Virus record (IMG/VR): IMGVR_UViG_3300044856_000216
Location: 1-64,000 of that record
DNA: 64,000 bases
DNA from: a virus
Direction: 5' to 3' (one strand)
The notes below the pieces were generated by a model that had not been told where the DNA came from, ran no database searches, and was given only the letters and a program-made list of their open reading frames with translations. Of this stretch, positions 2,642 to 61,859 are shown in pieces (the first letter of the stretch is position 1; each line of letters begins with the position of its first letter). Made by a program: the position numbers and the translations under genes.

Positions 2642-5600
2642 TTAATCCTCCGTATATTCCATGTCATCCAAATGATAAACACGATCATGAATGTCGCCAT
2701 ATCTACCCTGATTACCACCATTTTTTGCAGTGCCAATATAACCACAAACTCTAAATGCTATATCCATTGTTGTATTGTCAGTATTCCCACAGCTAGGACA
2801 CTCCCATTTAAGTCTATTGTTTTCGTCTGATACAAGAGGAATATCACCATCAAAGCCACATTTTTCACAATAACAACTCTTTGTATTAATCTCTGCATAC
2901 ATGATGTTGTTATAAATAAACTTAATAACTTCTAATATAGCAGGAATATTATGACTCATACTTGGTATTTCGATATATGAAATTGCTCCTCCTGGACTTA
3001 ATTTTTGAAATTTTGATTCGATTCTTAACTTTTCAAATGCTGTGATATGTTCAAAGACAGGAATATGATATGAATTAGTAATATAATTTCTATCGAAACC
3101 ATCTAATTTTTCAAAGATATCGTTACCGAAACGAGATTTTAGGCACTTTGCAAATTTGTAAGTTGTGGACTCTAATGGTGTTCCGTACAAACTATAATCA
3201 ATATTTTCTGCTTGTTTCCACTGATTACATTTATCATTTAACGCCTGCATAACCTTTAATCCAAACTCTTCGCCAATTCCTTCATCCGAATGAGAGTGAC
3301 CAGTCATAAATTTTACACATTCATATAAACCAGCATAACCAAGTGATATTGTAGAATAACCATCATAAAGAAGTCTGTCGATTTTCTCATGTTTCTTTAA
3401 TCTAGCATATGCTCCATGCTGCCATAGAATAGGTGCTACATCAGAAGATGTGCCAAGTAATCGCTCATGTCTTGCTCTTAATGCTTTATGACATAATTCC
3501 GTTCTTTCCTCAAAGATTTCCCAAAACTTATCAAAATCTCCGTCAGATGAAAAAGCAATATCTGGAAGAGAAATCGTTACAACGCCCTGATTGAATCGTC
3601 CATAATATTTATGTTTATTCGGATCAAAGTTCTTTGCATTTGCAATATTTCCCACTTTATCTGTAAATCTATCTACAGTAAGGAAACTTCGGCAATTGTG
3701 ACTATAAATACCACTAACTTCAAAATGCTCACTAGATGTTGTCACATCATAACTATACATTTCTTTATGAATCGGATTAATCTTGATAACCTCTGATTCA
3801 ATAGCATATCCTGATACATTTGATTCAATATAGTTATCACATTTCTTTTTGCATACAATGTAATTAACTAATTCATCAGTTGGGTAAAATTCAACCCTAT
3901 ATCTAATCAATTCTGGATTTTTCTTTGTGTAATGATTATGATATATTTTAGCTGGGATTCCAATAGATTGTGCTAACGCCATTTGCTGAAGTGCTAATTC
4001 TTTATTAGTAGAGCCGATTTGAACAGTAGAAAAGTTATTTTCATTTTGATGTGAATTGATATATCCGTCTGCATCAATCATTCCTGCAAAAAAGGCAAGC
4101 TTCGCTTCATAATTCCATGAGAATACTTCATTCGGAATTTGTCTATTTACTTTATTTATACCGCCAAATTTTGATGTAAAATAATTTGTCACATATTGAA
4201 TTCCACCGTTATTATCTGAAATTGCACATAAATCTTTGTATGTTCCTTTTTTACCACGTTCTTGTAGAATTGTTTTAACATTCAGTCCGAAATATTTAGT
4301 AAATGTATTGCTAAATTTTTCTTCAATTTCATCTTCTCCTGTTGCAGCAATAGACGCAAATACATGATTATTTTGATAACACCCATCACATAACATAAAT
4401 CCTAATAGCCATGCTTTATCAGCATTGAATATAATTGATTCTTCATTATATTGATTTGAGTTGATTAAGATTTTGTCTCCAAGTTTCAATTCTGATGCGT
4501 GTACATTTCTACCATCTCTTAATGTTAATGGATGATCTGTTGTACATAATAATCTTCTACCATTAGAAAAGTCCACATCCAACCATTCACTTGATACATT
4601 ACGAATAATTCTTTTTGTATCAACAAATCCTTTTTCTGTATCATAAATCGTTACTTCTGATAAATCCATATATAAATTAGGATTATCTTCGGAATACTGG
4701 TGTTTGATTTCAAATGAATCAGACAACCTCCTCCACATTCTTTCGAATGATTCTACATATAAATTATTCTTAATCTTATATGTGATAAGTTCTTTTCCGT
4801 CAACACACCCCATACATGTATAGACATCACCTTTTAATTCAAGCATCATTTTTTCAGATATGTAATCAGGGACAAGCCTCTTAGATGTACATTTAGCTGC
4901 TAATTCTGTAAGATACCAGTACTTTGAATCCTCTGTGATATTATCTTCTTCTAATACATAGATAAGTTTAGGAAATGCAGGTGCAATATAAACACCCTCT
5001 TCGTTTTTTACGCCTTGAATTCTTTGGCGAAGTATCTCTTCGATTAACATCGCTAAGTCAGCTTTCTCTTGATTGTTCTTTGCTTCGTTCAGATACATAA
5101 AAATTGTGATAAAAGGTGCTTGTCCATTTGTTGTCATAAGTGTGACTAACTGATACTGAATTGTCTGAACACCTTTTTCTATTTCTTCTTTTAATCGTTC
5201 ATTTGTTATATTAATGACTTCTGCAAGGTCTTCATTATACTCACTAATCAATCCATTATTATATAATTCTTCTGTTACTTTCTTTCTGATTGATTTTCTA
5301 CTTACATCAACAAATGGGGCTAAATGTGCTAGAGAAATACTTTGTCCACCATACTGATTACTGGCAATCTGAGCAATTGCCTGTGTCTCGATATTGCAAG
5401 CAGTCGAAAAACTATGTGGCGTTTCAATAAGAGTTTCGCTAATTACGGTATTATTTTGAAGCATATCTTCAGAATTGACCAACCCACAGTTATTCATATG
5501 CTGTAAGAAGTAATCAGCATCATGAAAATGAATTAGTCCTTCGTTATGAGCTTGAATTATGTCAGGAGATAATAAATATCTTTTTGTCATATCTGTACTA

Positions 5601-6004
5601 ACAGATCCAGCAATATAATCTCTTTTAGTAGGATTTAATGTTGGATTTTTGTTTGCATTTTCATCTTTCCAATATTCATCTTTGTCTTCCACAAGGTCAT
5701 AAATCTCTATATCTGTTGTATTCTCATTCTCTCTTTGGAACTCACGAATACTTCTATATCCTTCATAAGCTTTTGCAGTAAGTCTCTGTTTCTTGGTGAT
5801 TAACTTATCAAACACCATTGACTCAATATCAGATACACTTACCTCATTCTTATCTTTACATTCATTTTCAATCTCATTTGCAATATCTTCTGCAATCTTT
5901 GGTTTTACAATACCTGAACCATTTTTCATTGCTTTAAGAATTGCTGCTGAAATTTTTGATTTATCAAAATCAACTTCTGAACAATCTCTCTTAATTACTT
6001 TCAA
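2642..6004 (-). CDS. nrdD: Anaerobic (class III) ribonucleoside-triphosphate reductase, interrupted in frame by an intein
   Basis: ATP-cone-like N-terminus, a C-terminal Zn ribbon (CEKCGF...CPSCG) and the glycyl-radical motif RVCGYIG. TTG start at 6004 preceded by AGGAGAATAA. An extra ~371 aa sits between YTCMG and CRSFLT. Confidence 0.9.
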   Translation of the reverse strand: MKVIKRDCSEVDFDKSKISAAILKAMKNGSGIVKPKIAEDIANEIENECKDKNEVSVSDIESMVFDKLITKKQRLTAKAYEGYRSIREFQRENENTTDIEIYDLVEDKDEYWKDENANKNPTLNPTKRDYIAGSVSTDMTKRYLLSPDIIQAHNEGLIHFHDADYFLQHMNNCGLVNSEDMLQNNTVISETLIETPHSFSTACNIETQAIAQIASNQYGGQSISLAHLAPFVDVSRKSIRKKVTEELYNNGLISEYNEDLAEVINITNERLKEEIEKGVQTIQYQLVTLMTTNGQAPFITIFMYLNEAKNNQEKADLAMLIEEILRQRIQGVKNEEGVYIAPAFPKLIYVLEEDNITEDSKYWYLTELAAKCTSKRLVPDYISEKMMLELKGDVYTCMGCVDGKELITYKIKNNLYVESFERMWRRLSDSFEIKHQYSEDNPNLYMDLSEVTIYDTEKGFVDTKRIIRNVSSEWLDVDFSNGRRLLCTTDHPLTLRDGRNVHASELKLGDKILINSNQYNEESIIFNADKAWLLGFMLCDGCYQNNHVFASIAATGEDEIEEKFSNTFTKYFGLNVKTILQERGKKGTYKDLCAISDNNGGIQYVTNYFTSKFGGINKVNRQIPNEVFSWNYEAKLAFFAGMIDADGYINSHQNENNFSTVQIGSTNKELALQQMALAQSIGIPAKIYHNHYTKKNPELIRYRVEFYPTDELVNYIVCKKKCDNYIESNVSGYAIESEVIKINPIHKEMYSYDVTTSSEHFEVSGIYSHNCRSFLTVDRFTDKVGNIANAKNFDPNKHKYYGRFNQGVVTISLPDIAFSSDGDFDKFWEIFEERTELCHKALRARHERLLGTSSDVAPILWQHGAYARLKKHEKIDRLLYDGYSTISLGYAGLYECVKFMTGHSHSDEGIGEEFGLKVMQALNDKCNQWKQAENIDYSLYGTPLESTTYKFAKCLKSRFGNDIFEKLDGFDRNYITNSYHIPVFEHITAFEKLRIESKFQKLSPGGAISYIEIPSMSHNIPAILEVIKFIYNNIMYAEINTKSCYCEKCGFDGDIPLVSDENNRLKWECPSCGNTDNTTMDIAFRVCGYIGTAKNGGNQGRYGDIHDRVYHLDDMEYTED
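3695..4807 (-). mobile_element. Intein (371 aa) with a LAGLIDADG homing-endonuclease domain inside NrdD
   Basis: Begins with Cys (CVDGKEL) and ends ...GIYSHN followed by extein Cys (CRSFL). Two LAGLIDADG blocks are present: LLGFMLCDGC and FFAGMIDADGY. Confidence 0.85.
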
Positions 6005-53573: not shown

Positions 53574-54116
53574 TTATTCTCCTAATGGTCTTTCATATGT
53601 AACTAATTTTTCAACAATTAGATCCTTTGGTAATAAATCTCTACAGAAATATGCTGTTGCAAATGGACTACCTTTTACTACAGAATCCATATGCTCCTTA
53701 TTGTGATAACAAATTCTTGCATCAAAACTAAGAATCTGAATACCATCTTTGAAATATTTATATCTTGTTTTACCTTGTAGGGAATTAAGCGGTAGAAGAA
53801 CCGCAAATGGTTTATTGAATGAATAGAGTCTTTCTAAGACTTTATCTTTGATTGAGAAGGGTGGATTGCTAACTATGATATCCCATTTTTCAGGTTCATA
53901 ATTAAAAAAATCCTGACCTTCAGCTAATGAACTTCTGACTACATTGTATCCTTCTTCTTTTAGTCTGTTGTAGAAAGCAGACCAGTTTTCATCAAATGGA
54001 CACCATATAATTTTATCTTTTGGAAGATATTTAATAATGTGATCTGTTGCGTAATAGGGCGTGTATAACTCATTATCTTCCTTATCTGATGTTAAATATC
54101 CAATATTTAATGCCAA
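53574..54116 (-). CDS. Small N6-adenine DNA methyltransferase-like protein
   Basis: Motif IV IIVSNPPFS. TTG start at 54116 with only a weak GGTGA SD. Confidence 0.5.
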   Translation of the reverse strand: MALNIGYLTSDKEDNELYTPYYATDHIIKYLPKDKIIWCPFDENWSAFYNRLKEEGYNVVRSSLAEGQDFFNYEPEKWDIIVSNPPFSIKDKVLERLYSFNKPFAVLLPLNSLQGKTRYKYFKDGIQILSFDARICYHNKEHMDSVVKGSPFATAYFCRDLLPKDLIVEKLVTYERPLGE

Positions 54117-55638: not shown

Positions 55639-56370
55639 TTATTCTCCAACTACAAACAACTTTTCTACTGCTTTTTCACCTGTTACTCTATCCGACTTTT
55701 GTAACACTTTACGTTCTTTCTTCCAGATACACTTAAAATCATCAGGCATATTATATTCACTTACCAACACTATATTGCTCTCTGAAAGTTTACGAAGAAA
55801 ATCGTAAAAAGAATCATAGTCAATTGACTGTTTAGAATACTGTTTTGTATTTTTGTAAGGTGGATCAAAATAAAATACGCAATTTTTATAATCTGAGAAA
55901 TTTTGATAATCGCAGCACGTTATTTCAATATCTTTTAATAATGGAGAATCTTCTTTCAAATTTTTGACTCTTTCCTGATAGATATTACGCTTACCAGTTT
56001 TATCCTTACCCCAACCGCCATCGAAGTATCTGCCACCATACGAACCACAATATCCAATTAATGCTGTATACTCCTTGGAGTATTTGCCAGTTCCTAATTT
56101 TCTATTCTCTCTTACTTCTGCATAATGTTCAAAATTACAATCTGGTGGTGCAATAGAAAGCGTTGAATCAGATTTTACATACTGTAACAATGCTATCAAT
56201 TCATCATTTACATCTGCTGCAATTCTGTTATCACATTGAATTTTTTCAATAATCGAACAACTACCACACATAGGTTCTATGTAAGTTTTAATATGATTAT
56301 CATCAATATACTTCTGAATAATCGGCACTAAAAATTTTGCCAACCTGTTTTTACTTCCTTGATATACCAT
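55639..56370 (-). CDS. dam: Dam-type (D12 class) N6-adenine DNA methyltransferase
   Basis: N-terminal YQGSKNRL, EPMCGSCS (AdoMet site) and DPPY motif IV. Confidence 0.75.
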   Translation of the reverse strand: MVYQGSKNRLAKFLVPIIQKYIDDNHIKTYIEPMCGSCSIIEKIQCDNRIAADVNDELIALLQYVKSDSTLSIAPPDCNFEHYAEVRENRKLGTGKYSKEYTALIGYCGSYGGRYFDGGWGKDKTGKRNIYQERVKNLKEDSPLLKDIEITCCDYQNFSDYKNCVFYFDPPYKNTKQYSKQSIDYDSFYDFLRKLSESNIVLVSEYNMPDDFKCIWKKERKVLQKSDRVTGEKAVEKLFVVGE

Positions 56371-58033: not shown

Positions 58034-58322
58034 ATTCCTCTTTTGTCATATTGTTTGGATAATACATATCCATCACCATATCAAATGGCTGCAAATAATT
58101 ATCTAACACATTTCAAAAACTTCACCTCTTTTCATATTAAGAGTACATTCATTTCTGTACTCTATGAGAGCATCCTTATTCCTCATCATTACATGTTAGG
58201 ATCGAGGTTTGTTCCAAGGCATTATATTCTCAAATAAGTTTCAGCCTATACGCTCATCGGTTGACTGACTTGTTAGTTTCAGCCTTCACCTTTACCTTTT
58301 CACCATCTCAGGATTCATTGGT
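58034..58322 (-). ncRNA. Non-coding tract 3' of the TnpB-like gene; candidate omega/reRNA scaffold
   Basis: 289 nt without a credible ORF. Contains GGCUGAAAC twice and an 8-bp hairpin (AGAGUACA-8nt-UGUACUCU). TnpB guide RNAs are normally encoded at and after the 3' end of tnpB. Confidence 0.3.
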
Positions 58323-59552
58323 TTATTTAACCGTTTGTAGTGGTATATTTACGACTACTGGATGTGAACCTGCATCCACTATCCCATTGACGAAAGCCTT
58401 TGGGAATACCTTTTTCATTATCTGATAACTACCATTTACGTCTGCATTAATATATTTTCCCTTCTCACTCTGAAACAAACCTCTGTGAATTCTTCTGTCT
58501 TTATTGTAATTTTTCTCAATTGGTTCTTCACCATCAAGAAAAGATGTACCACTTGTATAACTTTCATTTGTTTTAATAAATTTAATTCCTTCATTCTCGC
58601 ATTTATATTCAAGCCTTTGTACAATACTTAAATATGGAATAGATACAAATTTCTGATTAACTCTTTTGCCCATATTGGTATCTTGTTTCCAGCCTGAATT
58701 ATAACCACAAACTAAAGTATCAATATTATTACACTTACAAAAATTTACCACCATCTTTGTTGATTTCTGAATATAGTCATCTACTTGATTATTTCTTTTA
58801 GTTGTAAATCTTTGCATCTCATTTGACCAATCACTATCATTTCTCAGCTTTAATGCAGATCTCATTTCTGAAATTTTCTTATTATAATACTGATTAATTG
58901 ACTTTAATGGTTTTCCATTTATTATAATTGGACTCACGTCACAGTTTGTTGTAATAGTCATTAAATTATCAACACCTAAGTCAATCGCAGCAATTCTCTC
59001 TGATACTATATTCTCTGTTTCAGGAACTTCTATTTTATATACTATCTCCATAACATAATAATCGGCTTTGGGAACAAATCTACATTGCATCAGTTTACCT
59101 TCAGCATGAGTATTCACTGTATAACCACCAAAAGGTTTAAATGCAATTCTGAATTGTCTATCATTTAATGAGCACTGTATATTCTTCAGCATAAAAACCT
59201 GTCTGCCGTCCTTCGGTAAATACTTAGGTAATTTTGGCATTCCTAAATACTTTGATGGATTTTTCTTCCAATCTTTTATTGCAACAAAATAGCCTTTCCA
59301 CATTTTATCTACAAGCTGTATTGTTTTCTGTGCTGCTTGCGAACCACATTCCTTATAGCAATCCATTGACTGCATAAGTTTTTGGACATCATAAGCACCT
59401 ATTTTATTTTTATTATTAATGAATTCTTGTCTAATAATATAATTTGCTTGATTATATACATTCTTTGAATAGAAACAATACTGGTCTACAATTTTATATA
59501 TAGGATTATTTCTTTTAATTATTTGCTGTTCAACACGATTAACTTTTTTCAT
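58323..59552 (-). CDS. tnpB: TnpB-like (IS200/IS605 OrfB-type) RuvC nuclease, 409 aa, no zinc finger
   Basis: RuvC-I is IAAIDLGVDNLMT. Central block VCGYNSGWKQDTNMGKRVNQKF. The tail is NESYTSGTSFLDGEEP...RGLFQSEKGKYINADVNGSYQIMKK (RuvC-III D). CxxC...CxxC is absent. AAGGAAA SD before ATG 59552. Confidence 0.8.
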   Translation of the reverse strand: MKKVNRVEQQIIKRNNPIYKIVDQYCFYSKNVYNQANYIIRQEFINNKNKIGAYDVQKLMQSMDCYKECGSQAAQKTIQLVDKMWKGYFVAIKDWKKNPSKYLGMPKLPKYLPKDGRQVFMLKNIQCSLNDRQFRIAFKPFGGYTVNTHAEGKLMQCRFVPKADYYVMEIVYKIEVPETENIVSERIAAIDLGVDNLMTITTNCDVSPIIINGKPLKSINQYYNKKISEMRSALKLRNDSDWSNEMQRFTTKRNNQVDDYIQKSTKMVVNFCKCNNIDTLVCGYNSGWKQDTNMGKRVNQKFVSIPYLSIVQRLEYKCENEGIKFIKTNESYTSGTSFLDGEEPIEKNYNKDRRIHRGLFQSEKGKYINADVNGSYQIMKKVFPKAFVNGIVDAGSHPVVVNIPLQTVK

Positions 59553-59560
59553 TTAGTTTC

Positions 59561-59729
59561 CTTTATTTATTATTTTAAAAATTACATAGCTCTAAAACTA
59601 CTATTATTAATATGATTGTTGCTATAAGGGTTTATTACTAATTAAAATTACATAGCTCTAAAACCAAGTGATAATGCTGTAGCAACTCTGTTGGGTTTAT
59701 TACTAATTAAAATTACATAGCTCTAAAAC
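59561..59729 (-). CRISPR. Mini-CRISPR array: 3 repeats (35 nt; gene-proximal one degenerate) and 2 spacers (31 and 30 nt)
   Basis: Minus-strand repeat GTTTTAGAGCTATGTAATTTTAATTAGTAATAAAC occupies 59729-59695 and 59664-59630. The third copy (59598-59561) keeps only the first 21 nt. Spacers in crRNA sense: CCAACAGAGTTGCTACAGCATTATCACTTG and CCTTATAGCAACAATCATATTAATAATAGTA. Confidence 0.75.
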
Positions 59730-59750
59730 CTCAAATATGTATTCGTAATT

Positions 59751-59779
59751 TATATAGTTTCTTGAAGTTTTACGTTCAA
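59751..59779 (-). promoter_or_regulatory. Sigma-70-like promoter reading into the array and tnpB
   Basis: Minus strand reads TTGAAC - 17 nt - TATATA, ending ~22 nt upstream of the first repeat. Confidence 0.5.
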
Positions 59780-59880
59780 TGGACAAAACCCACGCCCACT
59801 ATCCAATTGATTTCTCTTTTGGAATACTTGCTACAGGATAAACATTTATCTATCCTGTATTTATATATTCTCTCTTTCAA

Positions 59881-60030: not shown

Positions 60031-60087
60031 TGTCTCACCTCCTAAATTTTTCAGAAGAAATTCCGCTTTCTTTCGGTCTTGATTTTT

Positions 60088-60135
60088 ATACAATATATAG
60101 TATTTGTTGTAATTATTTAATACTATATATTGTAT
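60088..60135. repeat. Perfect 16-bp inverted repeat (ATACAATATATAGTAT - 16 nt - ATACTATATATTGTAT)
   Basis: Exact reverse complements. Shares the ACTATATAT core with the palindromes at 37073-37117. Confidence 0.6.
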
Positions 60136-60177
60136 ATGCTATTTTGTTTTCAACTACTTATTGTATTATTCTCCATT

Positions 60178-60353: not shown

Positions 60354-61859
60354 TTAATCCACTTGTGGCTGATGAAAATTTGCCATCTTCTCATCTGTAC
60401 AAATATATGTATTGTCATACTGAGCCTTATATAAATGCTCAATCAACAAAGAGATGCAAGTTGTCACTATACTGTTACCGCTTTGTTTATATCCCTGGGT
60501 ATCAGACATTCCAACTGCTTTACAGTTCTCATAATCAATATCATCGAATCCCATGAGCCTGTGGCACTCTTTTGGTGTGAGCTTTCTCACAACTCTTAAA
60601 TTGTCTCTATCTTCTTCGACCATTTGTTGCCGATTTCCTCCCTGGCATGTTGTTATTGTTGGAGAAATATAATCTTTGTCCCAAACATTTCCTGCGAATC
60701 CAGTTCCTTTATTTTCACCATAAATATTAAAAAGTCTTTTTATATTATTTGAATCTGCAAGAATCTGTTTTGGCTGTTTATAATCAGTTGCCACTAAAGT
60801 ACCCATTACTGAATCCTGCTGATAAACTAAATCTCTCTGACCGATAGTTCTGAATTCAGGTTTTGTAGTGCCAACAATATTTTTTTTAAATTTTGGATCT
60901 GTTATCTGAAGTCTTTTCTGTACTTCATCAGATAAGAAATATTTCGCCAAAACACTGCTATCTGTTTCTAATAAATCCTTTAATCTGATTCCTGTGTCAA
61001 AAGGCTGTGGAAATTCAAAAGACTTGGTATCAATATCCTTACGAATAGAGATACAGAAGATTCTATTACGATTCTGTGGAACACCTGTGTTCTTTGCATT
61101 GATTGTCTGATAATATGAGTTATATCCCAAGTTATCAAGCCGAATCAGCCAATCCTTAAAACTGTCAATATACTTCTTTGATACAAGAGCATCTACATTC
61201 TCCATAAGCAAATACTTTGGCAATGTGTTATTCTCTTTTGCTTTTACAAGAAGTCTCTCAACTTCATACAATAAACCTGAACGAGTTGATTTAATGTTGT
61301 GACTGCCACAATTAGGGCAAGTATAACGAGTATCTACATCTAATTCTGATGGATCATATTCACAACCACAATCATGACATGTCCACTTTAATCCTTCCTG
61401 TTTACCGGCGATTGACAAATCTGTGCATGGAGTCGAGTATGTAAGTAAATCACTATATGGCAGTGACTCAATCTGCATCATATCGCCAAGATTATGTGAA
61501 ATATGGTCTGCTAACCAATATTTCTCAATACCTTTTGTCTTGTTCTTCTTTCGTGAAAGTTTTTCCCAATCATACGGAACATCTTTTTTAAAATCATATC
61601 CAAGTCTCTTATCTGTAAGCTGTCTTACCATTTCTTCTTTGCTTGGATAATCTTCATAGTTTTCAATCATCTCATTAGTCAAACCACAATGCATTGCAGC
61701 ATAACTAACTACTACTTCTTTGTCTAAATCTGCTGTTGCAATCATATTTGCATTAAATAGATGAGTATTATCAATTCCCTTCATCTGCGCACCAATACCA
61801 CTACAAAGCTCAATTACACTTAACTCACAATAATTATTTTTTTCTTTATTCTCTGTCAA
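60354..61859 (-). CDS. dcm: DNA (cytosine-5) methyltransferase with a zinc-ribbon insertion
   Basis: Motif I ELCSGIG, motif IV STPCTDLS, motif VI LMENV, motif VIII QNRNRIF and motif X SGNSIV. CHDCGC...CPNCGS is inserted between motifs IV and VI. TTG start. Confidence 0.85.
   Translation of the reverse strand: MTENKEKNNYCELSVIELCSGIGAQMKGIDNTHLFNANMIATADLDKEVVVSYAAMHCGLTNEMIENYEDYPSKEEMVRQLTDKRLGYDFKKDVPYDWEKLSRKKNKTKGIEKYWLADHISHNLGDMMQIESLPYSDLLTYSTPCTDLSIAGKQEGLKWTCHDCGCEYDPSELDVDTRYTCPNCGSHNIKSTRSGLLYEVERLLVKAKENNTLPKYLLMENVDALVSKKYIDSFKDWLIRLDNLGYNSYYQTINAKNTGVPQNRNRIFCISIRKDIDTKSFEFPQPFDTGIRLKDLLETDSSVLAKYFLSDEVQKRLQITDPKFKKNIVGTTKPEFRTIGQRDLVYQQDSVMGTLVATDYKQPKQILADSNNIKRLFNIYGENKGTGFAGNVWDKDYISPTITTCQGGNRQQMVEEDRDNLRVVRKLTPKECHRLMGFDDIDYENCKAVGMSDTQGYKQSGNSIVTTCISLLIEHLYKAQYDNTYICTDEKMANFHQPQVD

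Follow-up and report, generated by a model that had tools for sequence, protein, structure and literature searches.

A phage mini-array of type II-A style whose guides may serve the adjacent TnpB nuclease

Which effector would use the guides of a small CRISPR array that lies in a phage genome beside a transposon-type nuclease gene and has no cas gene of its own style nearby? The question is raised by a locus on the minus strand of IMG/VR record IMGVR_UViG_3300044856_000216, of which positions 1 to 64,000, called the window here (64 kb), were analysed. The first-pass annotation of this DNA had offered three answers, namely that the phage feeds its spacers to a host Cas9, that the array acts as an RNA decoy or anti-CRISPR, and that its guides are used by the TnpB-like protein encoded immediately downstream. 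Carriers of the locus appear to be large lytic phages of one lineage that infect gut Bacillota; relatives of the phage polymerase, and of the terminase of a targeted phage, are distant only. The features of the locus are as follows.

58313..59858, minus strand: leader-array-tnpB cassette, ~1.55 kb, carried by only some of the related phages
59833..59858, minus strand: hairpin ACAGGATA / TATCCTGT at the left cassette edge, read in the sequence
59780..59798, minus strand: leader stem-loop TGGGCG-TGGGTTT-TGTCCA, immediately 5' of the -35 hexamer
59751..59779, minus strand: putative promoter TTGAAC-17-TATATA, -35 at 59779-59774 and -10 at 59756-59751
59730..59736, minus strand: leader end ATTTGAG adjoining repeat 1 (GAG/GTTT), read in the sequence
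59694..59729, minus strand: repeat 1, GTTTTAGAGCTATGTAATTTTAATTAGTAATAAACC, 36 nt
59665..59693, minus strand: spacer 1, CAACAGAGTTGCTACAGCATTATCACTTG, 29 nt
59629..59664, minus strand: repeat 2, 36 nt, identical to repeat 1
59599..59628, minus strand: spacer 2, CTTATAGCAACAATCATATTAATAATAGTA, 30 nt
59563..59598, minus strand: terminal repeat, first 21 nt intact, 3' half degenerate
58323..59552, minus strand: tnpB, 409 aa, with Pfam domains OrfB_IS605 and Cas12f1-like_TNB
58313..58332, minus strand: hairpin GGTT-AAATA-AACC, then AATGAAT, at a 3' end of the tnpB unit that resembles a guide RNA

The annotated mini-array of three repeats and two unique spacers is real. Three 36-nt repeats separated by two spacers occupy 59729-59563 of the minus strand, and the 21-mer GTTTTAGAGCTATGTAATTTT occurs three times in the window, on that strand only (starts 59729, 59664 and 59598), against a mean of 0.01 copies in shuffles, a difference far beyond chance. 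A repeat-finding program and TRF recovered the same units at a spacing of 65/66 nt, and no additional match to the repeat was found in the window at up to three mismatches. Our spacer lengths of 29 and 30 nt follow from a 36-nt repeat and the earlier ones of 30 and 31 nt from a 35-nt repeat, so that the two descriptions of the same array agree. The terminal repeat retains exactly its first 21 nt, as had been reported, and its degenerate 3' half merges into the ribosome-binding site of tnpB, a layout that recurs in all three clades of relatives.

These relatives comprise 48 copies of the leader-array-tnpB unit in related phage contigs, in three array-bearing clades (A, B and C) with TnpB identities of 96-98%, ~70% and 63% and with repeats that have diverged between clades. 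Leaders and tnpB junctions are near-identical among the 48 arrays, yet 34 unique spacers were counted; each array carries 1-3 spacers, nearly all of them 29-32 nt long. Older spacers are common to arrays at the tnpB end and turnover occurs at the leader end in most comparisons, a few of which require internal deletions or recombination. Regular identical repeats, unique spacers of near-constant length, spacer content that varies between near-identical loci and spacers that match foreign mobile elements (see below) are the general marks of CRISPR and, as judged from sequence, the feature is a functional CRISPR mini-array.

The cassette behaves as one unit. Homology of the window to the clade B and C modules is limited to 58313..59858, and phages L173 and L180, which lack the cassette, read GAGAATATATAAAT-(20 nt)-CCTGAGATGGTGAAAAGG where the window carries it between the same two flanks. 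At the left-edge position the other clades carry a different hairpin. The array abuts the tnpB ribosome-binding site in every array with downstream sequence (48 arrays, three clades), and the array-tnpB linkage is unbroken across the three clades although both flanks vary; such a stable pairing of an array with one RuvC effector from the TnpB/Cas12 family is a type V trait. TnpB relatives with 66% identity carry no array, nor do any of those at 61% or below. In related phages tnpB cassettes occupy alternative slots, and the window holds one copy, with presence/absence polymorphism at one site. An IS200/IS605 element would show TnpA or matching end hairpins and multiple scattered copies; no TnpA was found in the 64-kb window, and the left-end and right-end cassette hairpins do not match and are unrelated. 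We rejected a simple IS200/IS605 reading, as empty and occupied sites differ by 20 nt and show no clean motif-plus-guide logic; the sequence before the flank is similar at both (GAAAT in the empty site, TGAAT in the occupied one).

The leader end ATTTGAG is identical to the motif that anchors new spacers in Group 1 type II-A leaders, the ends of type II-A leaders being defined as ATTTGAG or CTRCGAG (PMC5382924), and it is kept across the 48 arrays with rare variants. The promoter had been called good. It is present, and kept in clades A and C, but we regard it as weak evidence because its -10 hexamer is replaced in clade B; a promoter scan of the AT-rich window DNA, moreover, returned sites no more commonly than in its shuffles. 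The leader stem is kept in 17 distinct leaders through wobble and compensatory changes (counted by eye, without a statistical test), with CG going to TG and TA at one pair and GT to GC at another.

The repeat had been said to begin like Cas9 (type II) repeats, and both its start and the junction ATTTGAG/GTTT with the leader are indeed type II-A in style: it is 36 nt long, starts GTTTTAGAGCTATG (type II-A repeats of this length starting GTTTTAGAG...) and alternates with spacers of ~30 nt. Its first 15 nt are common to long type II-A arrays in metagenomes; its 3' half (..GTAATAAACC) is unlike every long metagenome array found. Across 185,579 species genomes, an exact search with the 21-nt clade A repeat core hit a single stray site, in Listeria, and exact 21-nt core scans of 241 million metagenome records found no ..GTAATAAACC-family repeats outside the phage cassette. 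No long host-type array with the phage repeat appeared in the genome or metagenome scans, and literature searches by sequence string for near-identical repeats gave nothing useful. In Rfam there was no match at gathering score, with weak similarity to CRISPR-DR22 only (~22 bits vs a cut-off of 50), and none to the guide-RNA families.

Partners of type II-A kind are equally missing. Neither cas9, cas1, cas2 nor csn2 was found in the 64-kb window or in the inspected flanks near arrays of related loci, which bears out the first-pass statement that the window holds no cas9, cas1/2 or convincing tracrRNA; no anti-repeat is present either. With no cas1/cas2 in the window, new spacers must be acquired through proteins encoded elsewhere. 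A duplex scan of both window strands for a tracrRNA or anti-repeat found only the array itself, the next-best duplex with the repeat (-22.8 kcal/mol) lying inside a distant ORF, and no conserved anti-repeat or tracr-like partner was found within the cassette in clades A, B and C. A recurrent anti-repeat candidate, AGGTTTATT, 160 nt before the stop, was set aside as RGLF codons whose pairing is lost under synonymous variation. An internal repeat hairpin (positions 9-13 with 24-28) was likewise dismissed, because 83.5% of cells pair vs 81.8% in shuffles. There is a likeness, by eye only, between the final 11 nt of the repeat and the terminal hairpin at the guide-RNA-like end of the tnpB unit.

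What the spacers target bears most directly on the choice of effector. Protospacers were found for five spacers, four of them perfect, and the comparison of both window spacers with mobile elements, as the first-pass annotation had recommended, gave perfect protospacers for both. Spacer 1 matches at 29/29 positions in a Phage_integrase-family gene of IMGVR_UViG_3300029249_000260 (locus L089; 5' flank CCAAA), and spacer 2 at 30/30 elsewhere in the same element (locus L164; 5' flank TGGAA). Two sets of clade A arrays supply three spacers that match this 28.6-kb element, which encodes an integrase and a TubZ-like protein; two further spacers, from clades A and B, match one family of small phages (12-18 kb). 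Clade B accounts for one protospacer and clade C for none. No protospacers were found in the window itself or in carrier phages, nor in INPHARED phages or PLSDB plasmids, and two IMG/VR protospacer scans returned only the arrays themselves.

All five protospacers carry AA at -2/-1 and R at -3, followed by Y (5'-RAA plus Y), on the side of the upstream repeat. At a background AA frequency of 0.106, five of five has a probability of 1.4e-5. The 3' flanks (AAGCAAA, AGGGGTT, TGTATAG, CAGGACG and GGAAGCG) have no constant column. A 3' NRG motif, present at 3/5 protospacers (p = 0.006 uncorrected), was rejected as not significant allowing for the motifs examined. Known Cas9 PAMs all lie 3' of the protospacer; the motif here lies 5' in every case, which is the type V arrangement. 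Among 14 copies of one target, variation between -54 and +64 is confined to columns -2, -1 and +10, a pattern that looks like PAM escape. Natural flank variants of the targeted small phage at -1 and -2 occur in L099 and L103.

The gene next to the array encodes a nuclease that could read such a motif. The tnpB ORF starts 10 nt past the terminal repeat, and the predicted RuvC triad of its product (D191/E330/D371) is invariant in 21 relatives. A PDB profile search gave TnpB/Cas12f matches, to solved structures that are only distantly related, with no Cas12n entry among them. An array-less lineage shares 87% identity with residues 1-185, and clade B 95.5% with residues 186-409; on these alignments the window TnpB is a chimera of two lineages. 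In solved TnpB structures it is the N-terminal part that reads the flanking motif. At the other end of the unit, compensatory changes preserve the 3' hairpin in relatives both with and without an array (variants GGCT/AGCC, GGTAAAA/TTTTACC, TGGCTT/AAGCCA and TGGGATT/AATCCCA), and the sequences of tnpB relatives diverge sharply past ATGAAT, so that TnpB has a structured guide-RNA-like 3' end at a sharp element boundary, as in IS200/IS605-type elements. The base after ATGAAT is C in 7/7 distinct flanks with an A-type TnpB N-terminus and T in 5/5 with a B/C-type one, and the flanks of the array-less lineage that donated the N-terminal 185 residues start with C. Spacers of clade A open with C, those of clades B and C with T. 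The first guide base (C/T) thus co-varies with the TnpB N-terminal type, with essentially one evolutionary change behind it.

The best reading, to which we assign a probability of about 0.45, is that of a type II-A-derived array whose guides may serve the adjacent TnpB. Of the uses first proposed, this one best fits the strict array-tnpB linkage seen in three clades, together with the 5' position of the PAM and the co-variation of the first base, although no anti-repeat or scaffold solution was found for it. A single transcript from the leader would be both pre-crRNA and tnpB mRNA; guides made of the repeat 3' end plus spacer (..AAUAAACC + spacer) would be used by the phage's own TnpB, which would cut AAY-flanked competitor DNA in co-infected cells. 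The array would descend from a type II-A array and would probably still be refilled by a host type II-A integrase recognising ATTTGAG/GTTT. In type II-A acquisition 3' PAMs are normally selected through Cas9; here selection would then retain only spacers bearing the TnpB-type motif. The complete hybrid, in which the phage TnpB captured a type II-A array, reads 5'-AAY, works with no tracrRNA-type anti-repeat and leaves refilling to the host integrase, is a proposal that we hold tentatively. There is precedent for its parts: TnpB-derived Cas12n uses a 5'-AAN PAM (PMC12216341), and TnpB became a CRISPR effector ~50 times, insertion beside an existing array not being ruled out (PMC10691335). In TnpB-derived systems the array is nearly always downstream of the gene (PMC10691335), and the upstream position of the phage array speaks against service to TnpB. 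[quoted passage not shown] TnpB also keeps its own guide-RNA-like 3' hairpin and so has no obvious need for the array. The small number of protospacers (five), the single evolutionary change behind the C/T co-variation, the lack of cas1/cas2 in the 64-kb window and the Cas9-selected 3' PAMs of type II-A acquisition count on the same side.

The same observations also suit an alternative, a classical viral mini-array that relies on a host type II-A system. Host Cas1-Cas2-Csn2-Cas9 would insert the spacers, tracrRNA, RNase III and Cas9 would turn the guides on rival elements, and tnpB would be a mere co-transcribed neighbour with its own guide RNA, in keeping with its guide-RNA-like end. Viral mini-arrays that depend on host systems are established (PMC11656645). 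The start GTTTTAGAGCTATG, the 36-nt repeat with 30-nt spacers, the 15 nt held in common with metagenomic long type II-A arrays and the leader junction ATTTGAG/GTTT all suit such a system, in which the 21 nt of the last repeat would pair with tracrRNA (guides of the form spacer + GUUUUAGAGCUAUG...). The first-pass annotation had concluded from those 21 nt that both spacers would be usable by Cas9, an argument that is not needed and to which the PAM data lend no support. The conserved motif is on the 5' side in 5/5 protospacers, with nothing consistent on the 3' side beyond the weak NRG signal, and no host-type array was found; on these grounds a phage that feeds its spacers to host Cas9 is disfavoured. 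In known virus-borne mini-arrays the repeat is that of a host array, whereas the phage repeat was not found outside the cassette in exact 21-nt core scans (clade A core only in the genomes; 241 million records in the metagenomes). Dependence on host Cas9 would also leave unexplained the unbroken array-tnpB linkage over three clades and the first spacer base that matches the TnpB type, and we consider it unlikely.

A 5' motif could also be read by some other effector. The array might be cargo of a selfish tnpB cassette, its guides serving either a host system of type I or V or a nuclease encoded elsewhere in the phage genome, with linkage reflecting joint inheritance or mobility. The cassette has defined ends and is present or absent as a whole, tnpB cassettes take alternative slots among related phages, and ~40-60 kb of the phage genome lies beyond the 64-kb window. 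A 5' AA motif whose last base is carried into the array resembles the behaviour of type I-E. Against this stand the scanned collections, which held no other array with the repeat, so that a host effector would have no cognate array; the repeat, which lacks a stable hairpin of the kind recognised by Cas6 or Cas12a; and the 64-kb window, which contains no such effector. We judge this explanation, too, to be improbable. Most doubtful of all is the suggestion that the array soaks up host Cas9 or tracrRNA as a decoy or anti-CRISPR, in the manner of repeat-derived Racr RNAs, with irrelevant spacers. Repeat units by which phages inhibit Cas proteins have been described (PMC11656645), the 5' part of the repeat is type II-A-like, and a solitary type II-A-like repeat is present in two unrelated metagenome contigs. 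A decoy requires neither spacers nor a spacer-integration motif, and RNA anti-CRISPRs are lone repeats without functional spacers; here spacers turn over at the leader end, and five match rival elements, four perfectly and all with the flanking motif, which makes a decoy very improbable.

Set against known systems, the cassette shares traits with several. Virus-borne mini-arrays in inter-virus conflict, such as those of Saccharolobus SPV1/SPV2, have been reviewed (PMC11656645); like them, the phage array is virus-carried, is limited to 1-3 spacers, lacks cas adaptation genes next to it, and matches other mobile elements that presumably share its host. Unlike them, it targets unrelated elements and not close relatives of its carrier, and is fused to the virus's own nuclease gene; known mini-arrays depend on host effectors and on a host array with their repeat, and no such host array appeared in our scans. 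With the miniature type V systems derived from TnpB (V-U, Cas12n/V-N and Cas12f) it has in common a TnpB-size RuvC effector (409 aa) beside a short array, a 5' A-rich motif (AAY vs the AAN of Cas12n; PMC12216341), a locus without cas1/cas2 and a gene end structured like a guide RNA or tracrRNA. It differs in that the array is upstream and, as we infer, co-transcribed, and in that repeat and leader are of type II-A style and not derived from a TnpB guide RNA, with no anti-repeat found. As in type II-A arrays with Group 1 leaders (PMC5382924), the last repeat is degenerate and new spacers enter at the leader end, whereas cas9, cas1, cas2, csn2 and tracrRNA are not nearby and the motif lies 5' of the protospacer, not 3' as Cas9 PAMs do. 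The OrfB_IS605 and TNB domains, the intact D-E-D triad, the 3' hairpin followed by a sharp boundary and the presence or absence of the cassette in related genomes recall the TnpB of IS200/IS605 elements (OMEGA); the CRISPR array with its spacer-integration leader, the fixed rather than scattered slots and the lack of TnpA and matching end hairpins do not. [quoted passage not shown] In both cases a lytic phage aims spacers at another mobile element in the same host, but the present cassette consists only of a mini-array and a single small nuclease.

Phage mini-arrays and TnpB-derived CRISPR effectors are each already known. For the combination of a Cas9-style array and leader, its position upstream of and putative co-transcription with a 409-aa TnpB, and a TnpB-style motif, no description was found in our literature searches. 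If TnpB is the effector, the locus would show a transposon nuclease adopting a pre-existing array, a route left open by the survey of TnpB and Cas12 (PMC10691335), and would indicate that components of CRISPR machinery from two classes can combine; TnpB would, in addition, be a very compact, array-programmable nuclease with an A-rich PAM. Should the hybrid hold, the cassette would be a natural bridge from Cas9-type adaptation to TnpB/Cas12-type interference and a present-day case in which insertion beside an existing array gives rise to a CRISPR effector. With host Cas9 as the effector, it is the 5' motif and the missing host array that would call for an explanation. Whichever effector is at work, large gut phages keep a heritable record, open to updating, of the plasmid-like elements and small phages that rival them.

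On the minus strand of the window, GTTTTAGAGCTATGTAATTTT occurs three times (starts 59729, 59664 and 59598; shuffle mean 0.01 copies). Two repeat finders returned the same units at a spacing of 65/66 nt, which bears out the three direct repeats and two spacers of the first-pass annotation. The locus is organized as follows.

Leader: minus strand, sequence ending in ATTTGAG and adjoining repeat 1
Repeat 1: minus strand, 36 nt, GTTTTAGAGCTATGTAATTTTAATTAGTAATAAACC
Spacer 1: minus strand, 29 nt, between repeats 1 and 2
Spacer 2: minus strand, 30 nt, between repeat 2 and the last repeat
Last repeat: minus strand, initial 21 nt intact, remainder degenerate
tnpB ORF: 59552-58323, minus strand, 409 aa, ATG 10 nt past the last repeat, Pfam OrfB_IS605 and Cas12f1-like_TNB

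The leader-repeat junction, ATTTGAG/GTTT, is the Group 1 type II-A leader-anchoring motif, which together with the first repeat suffices for spacer integration in Streptococcus thermophilus (PMC5382924). The hexamers TTGAAC and TATATA, 17 nt apart, lie where they had been reported (59779-59774 and 59756-59751), but their designation as a good promoter is doubtful: the -10 TATATA is absent from one related clade of arrays, and promoter-like sites in the window are no more frequent than in shuffles.

The 64-kb window is the replication and nucleotide-metabolism region of a large lytic Bacillota phage, with genes for PolIII alpha, a RecD-like helicase, NAD ligase, RecJ and an intein-containing NrdD (anaerobic ribonucleotide reductase, 2642-6004), the intein bearing a LAGLIDADG homing endonuclease. 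As had been claimed of cas9, cas1/2 and tracrRNA, no Cas9, Cas1, Cas2 or Csn2 is encoded in these 64 kb and no anti-repeat occurs anywhere in them. At least two and possibly three DNA methyltransferase genes surround the cassette (53574-54116, 55639-56370 and 60354-61859), one of the N6-adenine D12 class and one a C5-cytosine enzyme with a zinc-ribbon insert; these are probably anti-restriction genes. The stretch that separates the C5-methylase gene from a 70-aa ORF holds a perfect 18-nt inverted repeat (TATACAATATATAGTATT / AATACTATATATTGTATA, 14-nt loop, 60087-60136), which resembles an operator or a terminator.

The exact repeat is found on seven phage contigs in IMG/VR (18-157 kb). With searches by TnpB protein and by a degenerate repeat core added, 48 arrays were recovered in all; they carry 34 different spacers, 1-3 apiece. 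Within a clade (A, which includes the window, B or C), leaders and tnpB junctions are nearly identical. Most array comparisons show a common older spacer at the tnpB side and differing spacers at the leader side; for example, CAAGTAGAGC.. occurs alone, after CAATACAAAC.. or after CGACAGCG... A few are explicable only by internal deletions or exchange between arrays.

Spacer matches were absent from the window, the carrier phages, INPHARED and PLSDB. The spacer search proposed in the first-pass annotation was nevertheless productive, since five protospacers were found, all in IMG/VR, and both window spacers match one 28.6-kb element perfectly.

Spacer targets
Window spacer 1: 29/29, Phage_integrase-family gene of the 28.6-kb contig
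Window spacer 2: 30/30, another site on that contig
Spacer carried by other phages of clade A: 31/31, 70 nt from the window spacer 1 site, within the same Phage_integrase-family gene
Oldest clade A spacer: 14 small phage contigs with an SPP1-type portal, perfect in 13, one mismatch in one
Clade B spacer: the same small-phage family, in the putative capsid gene (without a Pfam match), 1-2 mismatches

The 14 small contigs measure 5-28 kb, mostly 10-18 kb. The 28.6-kb element encodes a TubZ-like tubulin (L164:7529-8578, L164 being a locus on it) and a large serine recombinase (L164:1379-3061), and is perhaps not an ordinary phage but a phage-plasmid or a plasmid-like prophage. Because the five protospacers lie in other mobile elements, the arrays record rivals, consistent with the established idea that viral mini-arrays serve in inter-element conflict (PMC11656645). 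We therefore read the locus as a working phage CRISPR array directed at rival elements (probability about 0.95).

Flanks of the five protospacers (5' flank / first spacer base; 3' flank)
Protospacer 1: CCAAA / C; AAGCAAA
Protospacer 2: AGGAA / C; AGGGGTT
Protospacer 3: CCAAA / C; TGTATAG
Protospacer 4: TTAAA / T; CAGGACG
Protospacer 5: TGGAA / C; GGAAGCG

The 5' flanks have AA at -2/-1 in 5/5 (probability 1.4e-5 at a background AA frequency of 0.106) and R at -3 in 5/5, followed by Y as first spacer base. The 3' flanks contain no constant column, and NRG is present in three of the five (p = 0.006, uncorrected). In the target with 14 copies, the only variable columns from -54 to +64 are -2, -1 and +10, each in a separate genome; the changes at -2/-1 look like escape at the flanking motif.

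With the repeat oriented to read GTTTTAG.., a Cas9 PAM is invariably 3' of the protospacer, on the opposite side from this motif. The earlier suggestion that the guides serve a host Cas9 thus fits poorly, and the missing anti-repeat adds to the difficulty. Comparison of the repeat with other collections did uncover long metagenome arrays, but these have a different repeat 3' half (..GAATGATCCCAAAAC) and leader end (CGAG); in that scan, which used a degenerate core spanning all clades, all ..GTAATAAACC-family repeats were located in the phage cassette. The clade A core gave a single stray Listeria match across one genome for each of 185,579 species. Known viral mini-arrays share their exact repeat with the host (PMC11656645). 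Two metagenome contigs carry a lone type II-A-like repeat, GTTTTAGAGCTATGTTAATTTGAATGATACCAAATC after AATTTGAA, with no surrounding array (L149:857-877 and L161:7792-7812), which may be a single unit comparable to anti-CRISPR RNAs.

TnpB relatives are plentiful in phage contigs (271 confirmed loci). Among the best 80 of these, an upstream array accompanies the proteins of clades A (96-98% identity to the window protein), B (about 70%) and C (63%), and none accompanies the other relatives (66%, and <=61%). The repeats of clades B (GTTTTAGAACCATGTTAATTTATAAGGTAATAAACC) and C (GTTTAAGAACTATGTAATTTTATATGGTAGCAAACC) have diverged; all three clades conserve the leader and have their last repeat truncated after ~21 nt by the tnpB ribosome-binding site. 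Sequence on both sides of the unit differs among phages. Two loci without it, L173 and L180, read GAGAATATATAAAT-(20 nt)-CCTGAGATGG where the window has GAGAATATATAAAT, the segment 59858..58313 and CCTGAGATGG; the leader, the array and tnpB are thus passed on together in a single 1.55-kb cassette.

The ~190 nt just downstream (58126-58312, minus strand; L173:2508-2700; L180:3945-4137) are 94-96% conserved, apparently non-coding and also present in cassette-less phages. They contain AGGCTGAAAC twice and a fragment, AACCGATGAGCG, resembling a tnpB 3' end, and may represent either a structured RNA or what is left of an older element. In related phages (L017:2100-2800 compared with L024:2680-4300), the interval from ..GGAGAATAATA to CCAATCTTTCATTCGG.. 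is occupied by one of two things: an array-less tnpB with an 8-codon mini-ORF (MYQNCCKK) ahead of it, or a gene of 156 aa that is unrelated. Among these phages tnpB thus acts as an exchangeable cassette. Another array-less copy (L023:3001-3066) has a premature stop after ~21 codons and is thus probably a pseudogene.

D191, E330 and D371 are kept in 21/21 diverse aligned TnpB relatives, and a PDB profile search gave only generic TnpB and Cas12f matches. A hairpin right before (A/G)ATGAAT at the tnpB gene end is kept in all clades, with or without arrays, and its stem shows compensatory variants (GGTT/AACC, GGCT/AGCC, GGTAAAA/TTTTACC, TGGCTT/AAGCCA, TGGGATT/AATCCCA). Divergence among loci begins past ATGAAT, and from sequence this end has the look expected of a TnpB guide RNA 3' end. 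The window protein (58323-59552) is chimeric, with a crossover immediately ahead of the first RuvC motif: residues 1-185 share 87% identity with the array-less L022-type lineage and 51% with clade B, and for residues 186-409 the figures are 95.5% with clade B and 49% with the L022 type. The flanking motif is read by the N-terminal part in solved TnpB structures. Genes with an A/L022-type N-terminus have C after ATGAAT (7/7 distinct flanks), and those with a B/C-type one have T (5/5 distinct flanks). The spacers show the same pattern at their first base, which with few exceptions is C for clade A but T for the other two clades, and which agrees with the target in all five protospacers. A host Cas9 offers no reason for this correlation, although it reflects little more than one evolutionary change and host range might act as a confounder.

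TnpB has become a CRISPR effector ~50 times, the array nearly always lying downstream, and TnpB insertion beside an existing array "cannot be ruled out" (PMC10691335). In the phage cassette, by contrast, the array is upstream, of type II-A style and presumably co-transcribed with tnpB, with no anti-repeat found. Cas12n, a TnpB-like miniature effector whose tracrRNA overlaps its ORF, has a rare 5'-AAN PAM (PMC12216341), of the same form as AA + Y here. One recurrent anti-repeat candidate in the cassette was rejected as a codon artefact, and an internal stem in the repeat is unsupported. By eye only, there is a resemblance between the final 11 nt of the repeat (GGTAATAAACC) and the terminal hairpin at the tnpB 3' end (GGTTAAATAAACC).

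That the adjacent TnpB uses the array guides, as had been proposed, is our leading though tentative reading: linkage in three clades, the 5' motif and first-base co-variation speak for it, but the cassette holds no scaffold partner for the repeat. A host Cas9 and some other effector reading a 5' PAM are each unlikely, the RNA decoy also put forward earlier was not borne out and is very improbable, and the remaining probability falls to none of these four. The leader suggests that spacers may be inserted by a type II-A integrase in trans. Were such integration to take no account of the TnpB motif, selection on arrays of only one to three spacers could still leave just the usable ones. The finding is real, and of more interest than a plain mini-array.
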